Shown here: piece by piece, positions 17,851 to 30,462 of the stretch
Position numbering within the stretch: the stretch's first letter is position 1
Layout of the letters: each line of letters begins with the position of its first letter
Assembly (NCBI RefSeq): GCF_053078305.1
Contig: NZ_CP166879.1
Length of the DNA: 64,000 nt
Reading direction: 5' to 3' (one strand)
Position numbers and translations under genes: made by a program
Notes under the pieces: model-generated
What the model saw: only the letters and a program-made list of their open reading frames with translations
Database searches by the model: none
What the model was told of the DNA's origin: nothing

Positions 17851-17977
17851 TTATGTCTATCATCTCCCCGTAGTTGTCCGCATCGTTCGCCAACTCCACT
17901 GAAACCCTTGCTGCGGCTGGAATGTCGTTTTCCATACTTTTGATGACCGTTCATCACACTTCCAGGTTTTCGCGGTT

Positions 17978-18031
17978 TTGTGTATTGCAATGTGTATTGC
18001 AAATTGGCGATCGGGATGGGTGTGTATTGCA
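17978..18031. repeat. Three copies of TGTGTATTGCAA upstream of the island integrase (attL-proximal, putative integrase binding sites)
   Basis: Copies at 17978-17989, 17990-18001 and 18020-18031; the same motif occurs in tandem at 29588-29610 near the other island end. Confidence 0.7.
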
Positions 18032-18050
18032 AATCTCTTGAGGGCTGTTA

Positions 18051-19292
18051 ATGGCTATTGAAAACAAACTCAGTGACAAACTGTTAAAGAGTCTTGTCGG
18101 AAAACGGCAGGACAAACAAAAAACAATAGCGGATGGGCGCGGGTTGTCTGTGCGTGTAAGCATGGTTGGGGGGATCAGCTTTGTTTTTTACTATCGTCTT
18201 GGTGGCAGGGAATCCCCTCCGGTATGGCTTACACTTGGGCGCTATCCTGATATGTCTCTTGCAACAGCCAGGCGCATGCGTGATCAGTGCCGTGAGTGGC
18301 TGGCTGAAAATCTGGACCCCCGCAGGCAAATAAAACTTGCCGCCGAAAAAACCATGCAACCAGTGACCGTAAGGGATGCGCTGTTTTACTGGTACGACAA
18401 TCACGCCACAACAGCCAGAAAAGAGCATGAATATTTAATAAAACGATTTGAAAAGCATATCTTCCCCTATATCGGTGATATGGCTATAGAACAGTGCAAA
18501 TTACACACATGGCTTGCCGTCTTTGACAGGATCAAAAAAAATGCGCCTGTTATGTCTGGTGCAATTTTTCTTGATATCAAACAGGCGTTGCGTTTTTGTC
18601 GCGTCAGGCAATACATCGCGTGCGATCCCTTTGGCGATATTAACGTAAGTTATGTCGGGCGCTCATCCGGTATAAGGGATCGCGTTCTTAATATCAATGA
18701 AACAGCGGATGTATGGTCTTATGCTTACGGTAATAATTTGCTGACACTGTCATCAATACATAACAGAAGAATAATGGTTATCTGCCTGGTGTTTGGTTGC
18801 CGTCAGCAGGAGGCGAGGTTATCCACATGGGACGAATGGGATTTAAAAAACTGGGTATGGACAGTCCCAAAAGAGCACAGCAAAAACAAGGAGGCCATAG
18901 TAAGGCCTGTTCCTGACGGCATAAAACAATGGCTCGTTAATCTTTACGCAGAAACAAAAAATCGCGGTTATGTTGTCGGTTGTGCTTTGCAAAGGGCGAC
19001 AATAACAGGGGCTGCAAACAGAATATGCAGGCGTCTTGGTCATGATATTAATGGCTTGTGGTGCATACATGATTTCAGGCGCACATTTTCCACTGCGCTT
19101 AATGATATGGGGGCGGATCCTTATATTGTCGAACTTCTTTTAGGTCATAAAGTGAAAGGGGTTGCCGGTGTTTACAATAAAAGCAGGCATATAAAGAAAA
19201 AACTTGAGGTGCTTAATATGTGGGTTAATTACCTTAATACGATAGCAGGATTTAACAACAACGTTATCGAGCTTAATAAAGAGGTGGTGTGA
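18051..19292 (+). CDS. int: Tyrosine integrase (P4-type, N-terminal arm-binding DUF4102-like domain)
   Basis: 413-aa ORF; N-terminal region resembles P4-family integrases; C-terminal catalytic motifs HDFRRTF, LLGH and VYNKS (Tyr). Confidence 0.9.
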   Translation: MAIENKLSDKLLKSLVGKRQDKQKTIADGRGLSVRVSMVGGISFVFYYRLGGRESPPVWLTLGRYPDMSLATARRMRDQCREWLAENLDPRRQIKLAAEKTMQPVTVRDALFYWYDNHATTARKEHEYLIKRFEKHIFPYIGDMAIEQCKLHTWLAVFDRIKKNAPVMSGAIFLDIKQALRFCRVRQYIACDPFGDINVSYVGRSSGIRDRVLNINETADVWSYAYGNNLLTLSSIHNRRIMVICLVFGCRQQEARLSTWDEWDLKNWVWTVPKEHSKNKEAIVRPVPDGIKQWLVNLYAETKNRGYVVGCALQRATITGAANRICRRLGHDINGLWCIHDFRRTFSTALNDMGADPYIVELLLGHKVKGVAGVYNKSRHIKKKLEVLNMWVNYLNTIAGFNNNVIELNKEVV

Positions 19293-19293
19293 T

Positions 19294-19551
19294 ATGGCAA
19301 TTTATTCTCTTGTTGATGAAAACGATTTGCGCACAATGAAGGACATTGATCGGTTCATTCGTGAAAAAGAGTGCATAGCACTTACCACGCTGGCAAACTC
19401 AACACGCTGGAAAATGGAGCAGGCAGGTAAATTCCCGCGACGTATCAAGATCGGTGAACGTGCGGCAGGGTATCGACTTTCAGAGGTTCAGGCATGGATC
19501 CGTGGTGAGTGGCATCCTGGATGGAAACCTGGAAAAACAAAACAGCAATAA
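19294..19551 (+). CDS. alpA: AlpA-family excisionase/transcriptional regulator
   Basis: 85-aa HTH protein (ALTTLANSTRWKMEQAGKFPRRIKIGERAAGYRLSEVQAWI) immediately downstream of int. Confidence 0.7.
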   Translation: MAIYSLVDENDLRTMKDIDRFIREKECIALTTLANSTRWKMEQAGKFPRRIKIGERAAGYRLSEVQAWIRGEWHPGWKPGKTKQQ

Positions 19552-19605
19552 CCAGTAAATAACGCCCCTCATCAAGAGGGGTTTTTGTCTATAGGGTAAA
19601 ACGCG

Positions 19606-20184
19606 ATGAATAAAAATATTGCCGTGACGGGCAAGGGGTACGCTCGTCCAGTGAAAAAATTCTGTGATATTCGTGATCTTGTCGTTCTGCGCTTTGATGG
19701 TGTGAGCGTTCGCGTGGTGTATGTGAACGGCGATCCGTGGTTTGTTGCCGTTGACGTGTGCGCTGCGCTGGAAATTGTTGATCACAAGGTTGCGTTACGC
19801 CGTCTCGATGATGATGAAAAGGGGGAGTGTTTAATACCCACCCCAGGTGGAAATCAAACAATGCGAACGGTATGCGAGTCAGGGTTCTACAAACTAATCG
19901 CCAGAAGTCGGAAAGCTGTTACTCCTGGCACGTTCGCCCGTCGTTTCAGTAACTGGGTATTCAGAAATGTGATACCAGGTATCAGAAAAACGGGGGCTTA
20001 TGGTATCCCGTGGGGGGCATTACAGGATTTTTCCCGCCGTAAAGAGCAATATCAAATAAGTGCCAGCGAGAAGGGGAGGGAGCTACAGGCATGTAAGCGC
20101 AAAAAACGTGAACTGGAGGAAGAAGAAAAAAGGCTGATACGTGAATATCAGCCTGAGTTTTACTTTGGTGAGCGTATTCAGTAA
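19606..20184 (+). CDS. Bro-N domain protein (prophage antirepressor-like)
   Basis: N-terminal Bro-N-like region (VRVVYVNGDPWFVAVDVCAALEI...FYKLIARSRKA) with a charged coiled C-terminus. Confidence 0.6.
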   Translation: MNKNIAVTGKGYARPVKKFCDIRDLVVLRFDGVSVRVVYVNGDPWFVAVDVCAALEIVDHKVALRRLDDDEKGECLIPTPGGNQTMRTVCESGFYKLIARSRKAVTPGTFARRFSNWVFRNVIPGIRKTGAYGIPWGALQDFSRRKEQYQISASEKGRELQACKRKKRELEEEEKRLIREYQPEFYFGERIQ

Positions 20185-20521
20185 CCACACGCGGTGCTGA
20201 TTATACGGTACATCGTGTTAACCGAGAAGCTACCCACCAGCAAGGCAAAATCTTCTGCTAAAAAATGACATATGGCCAGTCGTCCGGAAAGCATGAAATT
20301 TTACAAAAATGGAAAATGAAGATTTTTATTGTGCTGGTGGGTAAAAACAAAAAGCGCCCCGTTGCCGGAGCGCCCTTGTGAACAATTAACCTGCTGCGAA
20401 AAAATTGGATCAGTGCAGGGAAATTATATCAACTGTGTGAAGAAGCGCCACAATTGCCAGTTTAGCTTTGCGGCGAACGCGTCAATAAAGAATATTCTTT
20501 CTTTAAATTCTGTTTGTGTAT

Positions 20522-28775: not shown

Positions 28776-28800
28776 AGGCTATCAGAACGATGAGGGCACA

Positions 28801-29082
28801 ATGACAGAAGCCGAACTACTGGGATTAATCCGCTACGTTACCGGAATCAGCCAGCAGCATGACGAACAGGCCACGCAGCCGGACAGCGTGACCGCTGAAA
28901 ATTATGCGCGTGTTGTTGCTGAGGTGATGCGCCGTGATGGTATCCAGCTTAATGATGCAGATATGCGCGACATACGGATCCGCGTTCTTGAAATGCTGGC
29001 CTACCGTCGCCGCGTGCAGACGTACAGGGAAAAAGCAAAAATAACGTACCAGTGGAAGAAGCCGGAGCGATTACGGCGGTAA
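28801..29082 (+). CDS. Hypothetical protein
   Basis: 93-aa ORF near the right island end; no family recognised. Confidence 0.4.
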   Translation: MTEAELLGLIRYVTGISQQHDEQATQPDSVTAENYARVVAEVMRRDGIQLNDADMRDIRIRVLEMLAYRRRVQTYREKAKITYQWKKPERLRR

Positions 29083-29477
29083 CTTGCTGATATTCCCGAT
29101 AACGCAAAATTGCGCTCTGTCCTAACCCGTTGATATTTTCGGGAACAGCCAACGGCTGAGGCCGGAACAACGATTATCTTTCAGATAGTCAGAGCTACGA
29201 AATTTTCGTAGTTTAATTACTCGCCAGTTTATCGTTAACTCGTTGATATTTTCGGTAACCTCAATTTGAGGAGATCGGAAACATAACCCTTCACATTCTG
29301 AATGGTTATAATGACCACTCAGACCATCAAGGCAACCATAACGAACATCGTTACGGTTGGAGCTTTTACCCCACTGGGGGGAAGGTGCACATCTGGATCA
29401 TCATTACCGTGATCAAGGGTATGTAAAACCCACCAGCCTGATTAACTGTTAACCGGAAAAAAGCCAGGTAGCCAATC

Positions 29478-29501
29478 TCGATATGGGGATCCCCATATCG
29501 A
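29478..29501. repeat. Perfect 24-bp palindrome TCGATATGGGGATCCCCATATCGA
   Basis: Exact inverted repeat centred on GGATCC within the ~600-bp non-coding right arm of the island. Confidence 0.9.
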
Positions 29502-29587
29502 CATTAACGCCCCCTAGAACTGCGCATATCTGCATATAAAAACATCCACCAGCTTTATGACGGATGCCGCTCATCTGATAAATAATC

Positions 29588-29610
29588 GTGTATTGCAATG
29601 TGTATTGCGA
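29588..29610. repeat. Two tandem copies of (T)GTGTATTGC(A/G)A near the island right end (attR-proximal)
   Basis: gtgtattgcaatgtgtattgcga; same motif as the attL-proximal triplet at 17978-18031. Confidence 0.7.
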
Positions 29611-29688
29611 CTCCTTTAAACGATAGGTTTGAGCATTCGTAATGTACTGTTTTTAAATTTTATTTTTTCCTGTCTTTTCATAAAAGCC

Positions 29689-30462
29689 ATGTATGCCGCC
29701 ACCATTGAGAGTGAGCTGGATACGCAGTCAGCGATGGATTTTATTCTGGGCGCGAACAGTCAGGAGCAGCGGGAAAGGCTGACCGGCTGGATTGGTGAAA
29801 TTGCCGCGTATTACGCCGCAGCACCGGTCCGTCTGGGAGGCGCAAAAGTGCCGCACCTGATGCCGGGGGACTCACTGAACCTGCAGACGGCTCAGGACAC
29901 GGATAACGGCTACTCCGTGTTTGAGCAGTCACTGTTGCGGTATATCGCTGCCGGGCTGGGTGTCTCGTATGAGCAGCTTTCCCGGAATTACGCCCAGATG
30001 AGCTACTCCACGGCACGGGCCAGTGCGAACGAGTCGTGGGCGTACTTTATGGGGCGGCGAAAATTCGTCGCATCCCGTCAGGCGAGCCAGATGTTTCTGT
30101 GCTGGCTGGAAGAGGCCATCGCTCGCCGCGTGGTGACGTTACCTTCAAAAGCACGCTTCAGTTTTCAGGAAGCCCGAAGTGCCTGGGGGAACTGCGACTG
30201 GATAGGCTCCGGTCGTATGGCCATCGATGGTCTGAAAGAAGTACAGGAAGCGGTGATGCTGATAGAAGCCGGACTGAGTACCTACGAGAAAGAGTGCGCA
30301 AAACGCGGTGACGACTATCAGGAAATTTTTGCCCAGCAGGTCCGTGAAACGATGGAGCGCCGTGCAGCCGGTCTTAAACCGCCCGCCTGGGCGGCTGCGG
30401 CATTTGAATCCGGGCTGCGACAATCAACAGAGGAGGAGAAGAGTGACAGCAGAGCTGCGTAA
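29689..30462 (+). pseudogene. B: Portal protein B, C-terminal 257 codons (downstream half of the interrupted gene)
   Basis: From MYAATIESELDTQSAMDFILG... to the stop; matches the lambda portal C-terminal half as recalled; upstream in-frame residues of ORF 29629-30462 are island sequence. Confidence 0.9.

Follow-up and report, generated by a model that had tools for sequence, protein, structure and literature searches.

The split portal gene of an argW lambda-like prophage very probably holds a helper-embedded PICI of a described group

Some integrative elements split a gene that their programmed excision rebuilds, as the skin element of Bacillus subtilis and the comK prophage of Listeria do. 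Such regulated-gene-integrity elements are cited as a class in the study that defined helper-embedded PICIs (HE-PICIs) and mapped 491 of them (Tommasini, Mageeney and Williams, NAR Genom Bioinform 2023, PMC10111431), work that first appeared as a 2022 bioRxiv preprint. Approximately 100 of the catalogued elements lie at a portal-gene site named B:Phage_portal_2:241, and the authors estimate a prevalence of about 5% of E. coli genomes. Coupling of satellite excision to repair of the helper gene was already proposed there; excision after induction has been shown only for 11capE, an element in gene E, by qPCR and deep sequencing, and no virions were recovered (PMC10111431). The integrases of HE-PICIs form a clade sister to other PICIs and P4, outside the P4 satellites, and the elements carry a doubled motif, tgTGTATTGCantgTGTATTGCa, approximately 81 bp upstream and 132 bp downstream of the attP centre (PMC10111431).

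The window analyzed here is a 64,000-nucleotide stretch of contig NZ_CP166879.1 (assembly GCF_053078305.1). It contains a lambda-like helper prophage that sits at argW, with tRNA-Arg(CCT)/intS as its flank. The helper late genes run in the order nu1-A-W-B'...'B-C-D-E-tail genes, and an island of 11,840 bp lies between the two halves of the portal gene B, placing it inside a co-oriented lambda-like late gene as is typical of HE-PICIs. The helper features are as follows:

14187–14198, + strand: cosN of the helper prophage, GGGCGGCGACCT; it lies upstream of nu1, and its flanks are cosQ-like and lambda-type cosB
14376–17024, + strand: helper nu1 (14376–14921), A (14896–16821) and W (16818–17024), directly upstream of B
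17021–17850, + strand: portal gene B, N-terminal fragment, codons 1–276 and part of 277; the ORF enters the island and stops at 17902
29691–30462, + strand: portal gene B, C-terminal fragment, the remainder of codon 277 through 533
30308–33185, + strand: downstream head genes, C protease (to 31762), D (31766–32104) and E (32133–33185)

The last portal sequence of the N-terminal ORF (...IVKA) ends at 17850, the frame terminates 17 codons inside the island, and portal sequence resumes with MYAATIESE at 29689–29691. Joining the two fragments restores a 1602-nt ORF (533 aa) whose only stop is the terminal one and which matches Pfam Phage_portal_2 over residues 32–400 (model positions 2–354, E = 1e-96). 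The joined gene is colinear with the intact portal of a related E. coli prophage (NZ_CM183920, L003 25327–26928), with no indels and 20 mismatches in 1602 positions; the empty site in that prophage reads GTGAAGGCGATGTATGCC. The insertion point is codon 277, equivalent to approximately position 241–247 of the Phage_portal_2 model. As expected of an HE-PICI, the target gene is truly disrupted and the attP brings no replacement: no portal-like sequence was found at either island end, so no full-length portal is possible from this copy. Judged from the sequence, restoration of the gene would come only through excision of the satellite. The in-frame rejoining and the junction positions of the original prediction are borne out, and its reading holds: a satellite has inserted site-specifically, by means of a tyrosine integrase, in a portal gene that is essential to the lambda-like helper prophage.

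The island gene order fits the four published HE-PICI zones (integration, Bro, replication, and late), and the key genes lie on the + strand, co-oriented with the helper late operon:

18051–19292, + strand: tyrosine integrase (domain matches Arm-DNA-bind_3, Phage_int_M and Phage_integrase)
19294–19551, + strand: AlpA, excisionase/regulator (Pfam Phage_AlpA)
19606–20184, + strand: Bro-N/anti-repressor-like protein of the Bro zone (PGAP name in relatives)
20933–21253, − strand: YlcI/YnfO-family small protein, the sole clearly supported minus-strand gene
21558–21743, + strand: P4-like immunity RNA pair, isrK-family (21558–21634, 66 bits) and C4-family (21656–21743, 77.6 bits), both over Rfam gathering scores
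21985–22971, + strand: three small conserved satellite ORFs, 21985–22431, 22433–22666 and 22672–22971 (DUF4222-like)
22968–24377, + strand: RepA-family helicase (AAA_25), where canonical portal-site islands have a primase
24828–25238, + strand: single-stranded DNA-binding protein (SSB)
25204–25521, + strand: small protein related to phage transcriptional activators (phrog_994/10396)
25967–27022, + strand: major capsid protein, lambda E family, 42% identical to helper E
27034–27369, + strand: head decoration protein, lambda D family, 37% identical to helper D
27382–27795, + strand: conserved late-zone protein, phrog_1999
27829–27900, + strand: island cos copy 1, cosQ-like and cosN GGGCGGCGACCT at 27857–27868, upstream of island terS
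27990–28544, + strand: small terminase subunit (TerS), Nu1 family, 36% identical to helper Nu1
28649–28762, − strand: island cos copy 2, inverted, with cosN at 28736–28725
28801–29082, + strand: last conserved island ORF, phrog_1561

The integrase is identical at 408 of 413 residues (five differ) to WP_000963723 of canonical portal-site islands, and the element itself belongs to the published set that defines the HE-PICI clade. An integrase and alpA at one end, an AAA_25 helicase with SSB, and a length of 11,840 bp, inside the range of about 10–15 kb for such elements, are the traits of a Gram-negative PICI. The phrog_1999 protein shows no significant similarity to helper C or Nu3. No portal, large terminase (TerL), protease, tail, or lysis genes were found among the island ORFs, and no + strand terminator-like site was found between the portal fragment and int (17851–18051). 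The island cosN is the lambda 12-nt cohesive-end sequence, the same as that of the helper, which points indirectly to packaging by a helper phage; cos copies 1 and 2 are 84% and 79% identical to the helper cos across 77 and 94 nt, respectively. This inventory confirms the predicted content of integrase, AlpA, replicon, capsid, decoration, TerS, and cos without portal, TerL, or tails.

The element is already catalogued, as Eco1978.12.B_Phage_portal_2_241 with the identity block 'at' (PMC10111431). The published attL (163 nt) and attR (154 nt) match window positions 17787–17949 and 29632–29785 exactly, and the published size of 11,839 bp and helper, Eco1978.58.R, are consistent with the 11,840-bp insert and its prophage flank. 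Site, helper att (tRNA-Arg), 'at' block, arm motifs, and four-zone order also agree; with no detectable difference between them, the window island and Eco1978.12 appear from these comparisons to be one and the same element. The insert is therefore very probably an HE-PICI of the B:Phage_portal_2:241 group, self-integrated into portal codon 277 of the argW lambda-like prophage. The original observation is real, correctly interpreted, and already known: its suggestion that such coupling was undescribed for Gram-negative satellites does not hold, given the 2022 preprint and the elements published at this site.

Two other origins for the split gene carry little weight. That two unrelated contigs were fused within a portal gene is hardly credible, since nothing speaks for it except that such errors can in principle occur in a draft genome. 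Of 5,426 complete E. coli genomes searched for the split-portal arrangement, as originally proposed, 61 contain the portal–integrase junction (window 17400–18300) full-length at 98–99% identity and 58 contain the attR junction; the carriers come from many hosts and countries, and the portal alleles with this junction include one with only approximately 75% nucleotide identity. Both portal halves match one intact gene with no bases gained or lost, arm motifs stand at fixed distances on either side, and TIGER mapped the element independently for the published catalogue. Misassembly, including B halves from different loci, is thereby ruled out, insofar as comparing sequences allows. It is also very unlikely that a satellite of another family, a capsid-forming PICI (cf-PICI) or a P4-like element, landed by chance within a prophage. 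The island's own capsid, decoration, and TerS genes recall the former, and its P4-type integrase architecture and C4/isrK RNAs the latter. However, cf-PICIs encode a complete head module, whereas portal, protease, head-tail adaptors, and TerL are missing here and only capsid, decoration, and TerS are present, and we rejected this assignment. A P4-like satellite was likewise rejected: no island ORF matched P4 alpha-type primase, Sid, Psu, or Delta among PHROG or NCBIfam matches, cos and helper are lambda-type rather than P2-like, and the HE-PICI integrase clade does not fall inside the P4 satellites.

Membership in the HE-PICI group leaves the condition of this particular copy to be considered, beginning with its recombination sites:

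17844–17850, + strand: attL overlap AGGCGAT, within the canonical 8-bp identity block AAGGCGAT at 17843–17850
17979–18030, + strand: P' arm, doubled TGTATTGC at 17981 and 17993, approximately 131–134 bp downstream of the crossover (17847–17850), with a third half-site at 18023, immediately before int
29587–29609, + strand: P arm, doubled TGTATTGC at 29589 and 29601, approximately 80–81 bp upstream of the crossover (29690)
29684–29690, + strand: attR overlap AAGCCAT, block AAAGCCAT at 29683–29690

The doubled motif has the published HE-PICI spacing on both arms and occupies the same positions in two common 11-kb portal-site members, L001 and L005. Tyrosine recombinases normally need identical overlaps, and in this copy the attL and attR overlaps mismatch at two of seven positions. 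The identity block is accordingly reduced from the canonical 8 bp to 'AT', as in the catalogue entry. The 2-bp ambiguity originally noted thus stands insofar as AT is the sole sequence common to both junctions, but there is no clean core behind it. Given these sequences, excision of this copy may be impaired or inefficient and restoration of B may be rare.

One reading, tentative but worth entertaining, is that the element is of the same kind but a dead end: a satellite with an AAGCCAT attP would have entered an AGGCGAT-type portal through a rare heterologous integration and would now be largely non-excising, with the portal permanently inactivated and both partners stranded. Besides the overlap mismatch, each of the 58 genomes with the attR junction has three or more bases across 161 nt that are not those of the window, and L001 and L005, both examined genomes with that junction, have AAGGCGAT on both sides. 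Eco14761.12, in a divergent portal, has AAAGCCAT on both sides (PMC10111431), and an intact portal carrying exactly that site exists. Across published subgroups the overlaps (AGGCGAT, AAGCCAT, GCGCCAT, and GGGCGAT) follow the portal codons (PMC10111431), which argues that overlap identity matters. The helper tape-measure gene H is also frameshifted by a 1-nt deletion and, if this is real, the helper would be unable to provide tails; many HE-PICI helpers look truncated (PMC10111431). Against this, the frameshift could be a draft-assembly error, and the integrase and alpA are intact, as are both arm motifs. Moreover, a second catalogued element, Eco10735.12, has the same mismatched overlaps with diverged flanks (PMC10111431), which shows that the configuration arises or persists repeatedly and that the integrase evidently accepted the mismatch on at least one occasion. 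A related and rather doubtful proposal is that the mismatch records live target switching, in which the integrase crossed non-identical overlaps and the satellite moved from one portal allele to another, poorly reversibly and with permanent knockout of the helper portal. In such copies the satellite would keep its helper locked instead of acting as a timed switch. Neither heterology nor overlap mismatches are mentioned in the main text of PMC10111431.

For an HE-PICI of this group, the published model and the 11capE experiments suggest the following cycle. Upon SOS induction, the entire composite would leave argW and replicate, and Q-dependent late transcription of the helper would run through nu1-A-W-B' into int and alpA. 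The satellite would next excise, restoring B, and its DNA would be packaged via its own cos into particles built with helper portal, terminase large subunit, and tails. Satellite capsid, decoration protein, and TerS probably bias assembly and packaging toward the satellite. In this copy, the differing overlaps may make the excision step inefficient.

A satellite within an essential helper morphogenesis gene represents a cis coupling of parasite and helper, and bears on the throttling of phage yield by satellites and on the ways in which integrases gain new targets. The window adds no new kind of system, since the concept, its prevalence, and the specific element are already in the literature. 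What remains of value is copy-level detail: a mosaic island combining a portal-site integration module with chromosomal-PICI replication and late modules, an inverted cos pair, and a mismatched recombination core that offers a possible test of how strict this integrase clade is on overlap identity.

The comparison with known systems places the island closest to its catalogued group. Relative to the common 11-kb portal-site members (L001, L005), it carries a RepA-type helicase where they have a primase, and it is further set apart by a second, inverted cos and a variant attR overlap. The founding HE-PICI, Eco567.11capE (capsid gene E, prophage 50icd, E. coli NRG857c), is likewise embedded and co-oriented in a lambda-like late gene and has int-alpA, its own capsid gene, an attP without replacement sequence, and the same proposed cis coupling; it differs in its target (E rather than B), its 10-bp identity block, its lack of terS, and in being the sole member whose excision has been shown experimentally. 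Chromosomal Gram-negative PICIs (EcCICFT073 type; roxA/phoQ-site island, E. coli RM14516, L002) share the int-alpA-replication-late layout and dependence on lambda-like cos helpers, and across approximately 9 kb, covering its replication and late zones, the window island matches them at about 91% identity. In contrast, they occupy chromosomal sites, interact with helpers only in trans, have other integrases and att sites, and lack the doubled TGTATTGC. Satellite P4, which integrates at a chromosomal tRNA-Leu gene, has in common with the island its integrase architecture, an AlpA-like regulator, and the C4/isrK-type immunity RNAs of the Bro zone, but uses P2-type helpers and has genes that were not found in the island (alpha primase, sid, psu, and delta). 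In contrast to elements of the skin and comK type, the island interrupts a gene of another mobile element, and the regulation presumably benefits the satellite and not the cell.

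The island at 17851-29690 (11,840 bp) divides the portal gene B of the lambda-like helper prophage, which lies in a lambda-type late operon:

14376-14921, plus strand: nu1
14896-16821, plus strand: A
16818-17024, plus strand: W
17021-17850, plus strand: N-terminal part of portal B, portal-like up to IVKA at 17850
29691-30462, plus strand: C-terminal part of portal B, the return to portal sequence being marked by MYAATIESE from 29689-29691; C, D, and E come next

When fused, 17021-17850 and 29691-30462 form one ORF of 1602 nt (533 aa) with a single terminal stop, in which Pfam Phage_portal_2 covers residues 32-400 (E = 1e-96). 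The uninterrupted 1602-nt portal of a related E. coli prophage (L003, NZ_CM183920) aligns colinearly with the joined sequence, without indels and with 20 mismatches; at the insertion site it reads GTGAAGGCGATGTATGCC. These comparisons confirm the original prediction of a split portal, an 11,840-bp insert, and a 2-bp 'AT' ambiguity. Judged from the sequence, B is physically split, with replacement sequence absent.

The junctions recur elsewhere. Of 5,426 complete E. coli genomes, 61 (human, poultry, pig, dog, and food isolates) matched a 901-nt probe for the left junction (portal|integrase) over its full length at 98-99% identity; a 161-nt probe for the right junction matched in 58 complete E. 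coli genomes. Misassembly, a concern raised with the prediction, is rejected on the strength of this recurrence in 58-61 complete genomes. Insertion is both site-specific and recurrent, since in EC28 (L005), whose portal allele has only ~75% nucleotide identity over its 3' half, the same integrase protein occurs at the identical codon.

The gene content of the island is as follows:

18051-19292, plus strand: tyrosine integrase with Arm-DNA-bind_3, Phage_int_M, and Phage_integrase domains
19294-19551, plus strand: AlpA
19606-20184, plus strand: Bro-N/anti-repressor-like protein
20933-21253, minus strand: YlcI/YnfO gene, in a largely non-coding stretch
21558-21634, plus strand: isrK RNA, above the Rfam gathering score
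21656-21743, plus strand: C4 RNA, above the Rfam gathering score
Between C4 RNA and helicase, plus strand: three small conserved ORFs
22968-24377, plus strand: AAA_25/RepA-type helicase
24828-25238, plus strand: SSB
25967-27022, plus strand: capsid protein, lambda-E family, 42% identical to helper E
27034-27369, plus strand: decoration protein, D family, 37% identical to helper D
Late zone, between decoration protein and TerS, plus strand: 137-aa protein with no assigned role
27990-28544, plus strand: TerS, Nu1 family, 36% identical to helper Nu1
Late zone, 3' of TerS, plus strand: last small ORF

Genes for portal, protease, TerL, tails, and lysis are absent from the island, whose anatomy is that of a Gram-negative PICI. 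The isrK and C4 RNAs form a P4-type CI/seqA immunity pair. NCBIfam profiles added little besides YlcI/YnfO and SSB. The 137-aa protein has a weak PHROG match to a head-protease C-terminus; its candidacy as a Nu3/C-like scaffold was dropped, as BLASTP against helper C was not significant (E = 0.37). Across ~1.8 kb at 20185-21985, long ORFs look spurious (e.g., a 464-aa ORF at 20595-21989). The same stretch holds a promoter-like site (TTGACA-17-TAAAGT, 21300-21328) beside the YlcI/YnfO gene and the isrK/C4 pair, and a weak SymR-like match (21362-21434, minus strand) under the gathering score.

Eco567.11capE, a PICI lodged in gene E (capsid) of a lambda-like prophage, founded the class of helper-embedded PICIs (HE-PICIs; Tommasini et al., 2023, PMC10111431). 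After mitomycin C treatment the composite excises and replicates and the satellite then excises, as followed by qPCR and deep sequencing, and no virions were recovered (Tommasini et al., 2023). The four published HE-PICI zones (integration, Bro with C4/isrK RNAs, replication, and late) agree with the island gene order. An HE-PICI-unique motif, tgTGTATTGCantgTGTATTGCa, lies at 81±2 bp on the upstream side of the attP center and at 132±2 bp on the downstream side (Tommasini et al., 2023); it occurs doubled in the window at 29589/29601 and 17981/17993, at the published crossover distances. A third, single TGTATTGC half-site lies ~28 nt before the start codon of the integrase in the window (18023-18030) and in two common 11-kb portal-site islands (L001, 13624; L005, 3366), where it could serve as an operator for int expression.

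The available part of the supplementary catalogue gives at least about 100 rows for the site B:Phage_portal_2:241 (Tommasini et al., 2023), and in the joined portal, residue 277 corresponds to approximately position 241-247 of the Phage_portal_2 model. One row in that part, Eco1978.12.B_Phage_portal_2_241, describes an 11,839-bp element (JPQG01000003.1/742941-754779, assembly GCA_000736735.1) with helper Eco1978.58.R and identity block 'at' (Tommasini et al., 2023). Its published attL (163 nt) and attR (154 nt) match window positions 17787-17949 and 29632-29785 exactly, and the window prophage adjoins intS and tRNA-Arg(CCT) at 54851-54925, in agreement with the 'R' site of Eco1978.58.R. Together, the att strings, catalogue row, and tRNA-Arg flank identify the island, at the level of sequence comparison, as the catalogued Eco1978.12 element itself or an identical copy. 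The interpretation of the insert as a real satellite within a helper portal gene therefore stands; the accompanying suggestion that such coupling was not known for Gram-negative satellites does not, since the class, as well as this particular element, has been in print since 2023.

No complete E. coli genome covers at least 80% of the 11.8-kb island. It is a mosaic rather than a widespread genotype. Similarity to the common 11-kb portal-site islands is limited to 17851-20185 (98.4%) and 29423-29690 (~97.6%). The middle ~9 kb, in which a RepA-type helicase takes the place of a primase, shares ~91% identity with chromosomal PICIs, for example the one between roxA and phoQ in E. coli RM14516 (L002); L002 itself was compared by annotation and pattern search alone.

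The att cores of the window copy do not match. The canonical islands L001 and L005 carry AAGGCGAT at attL and attR alike, whereas the window has AAGGCGAT at attL and AAAGCCAT at attR; the two differences are at synonymous third-codon positions of Lys-Ala. Over the 161-nt probe, identity to the window was 98.1% or lower in all 58 complete genomes that share the attR junction. One complete genome contains an intact portal carrying precisely the AAAGCCAT site, and in the available catalogue rows the island Eco14761.12, which lies in a divergent portal, has AAAGCCAT at attL and attR alike (Tommasini et al., 2023). Over the published subgroups (AGGCGAT, AAGCCAT, GCGCCAT, and GGGCGAT), the 7-bp att overlap changes in step with the portal Lys/Arg-Ala codons, the pattern expected if strand exchange takes place across this block. 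The exceptions are the mismatched window copy and Eco10735.12, both of which look like AAGCCAT-overlap satellites that entered an AGGCGAT portal. Homologous recombination is a less likely source of the odd attR core than such heterologous site-specific integration, as it would require a right-hand crossover inside the ~9 bp that separate the core from a strongly divergent portal allele.

Lambda Int generally requires overlap identity. Because tyrosine recombinases generally require identical overlaps (Tommasini et al., 2023), excision of the window copy may be inefficient. A tentative and rather doubtful extension of this reading is that the mismatched core is the trace of a heterologous integration which locks the satellite into the helper portal gene; the main text of the 2023 paper makes no mention of heterology or mismatches.

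The lambda 12-nt cohesive-end sequence GGGCGGCGACCT occurs at the helper cos (14187) and again in the island at 27857, where its flanks are cosQ-like. Lambda-type cosQ-cosN copies form an inverted pair on either side of terS (27829-27900, plus strand; 28649-28762, minus strand), the second reaching further into helper-like cosB sequence. By pattern search, both copies are also in L002 (12992, plus; 13859, minus), and L001 and L005 have the first only.

From the 11capE experiments and general PICI biology, we infer the following course. The helper would be induced through its CI-type repressor (S24 peptidase gene, 2759-3451), and the 58-kb composite would excise and then replicate. Late transcription would read through into int and alpA; the satellite has the orientation of the helper late operon, and no terminator-like site was found on the plus strand between B' and int. 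Satellite excision would restore B, and the 11.8-kb satellite genome would be packaged via its own cos with portal, TerL, and tails from the helper, while the island capsid, decoration, and TerS homologs presumably tilt assembly and packaging toward the satellite.

The helper tape-measure gene H (36564-39124) appears as two overlapping ORFs, 36564-37253 and 37214-39124, with a break near 37211. The split results from the loss of 1 nt (CCGGCG to CC-GCG) in comparison with phage PhiR63_1, where H is intact, and reflects either a genuine defect or an error of the draft assembly; if real, the helper would be unable to make tails. The right end of the helper prophage contains:

52206-53159, minus strand: ompT
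53532-54689, minus strand: intS
54851-54925: argW, tRNA-Arg(CCT)

The excisionase-like torI of the related prophage L003 is located at the end opposite int; the corresponding end here is outside the window. The arrangement is KplE1-like, with int and xis at opposite prophage ends, the xis end being the one seen in L003.
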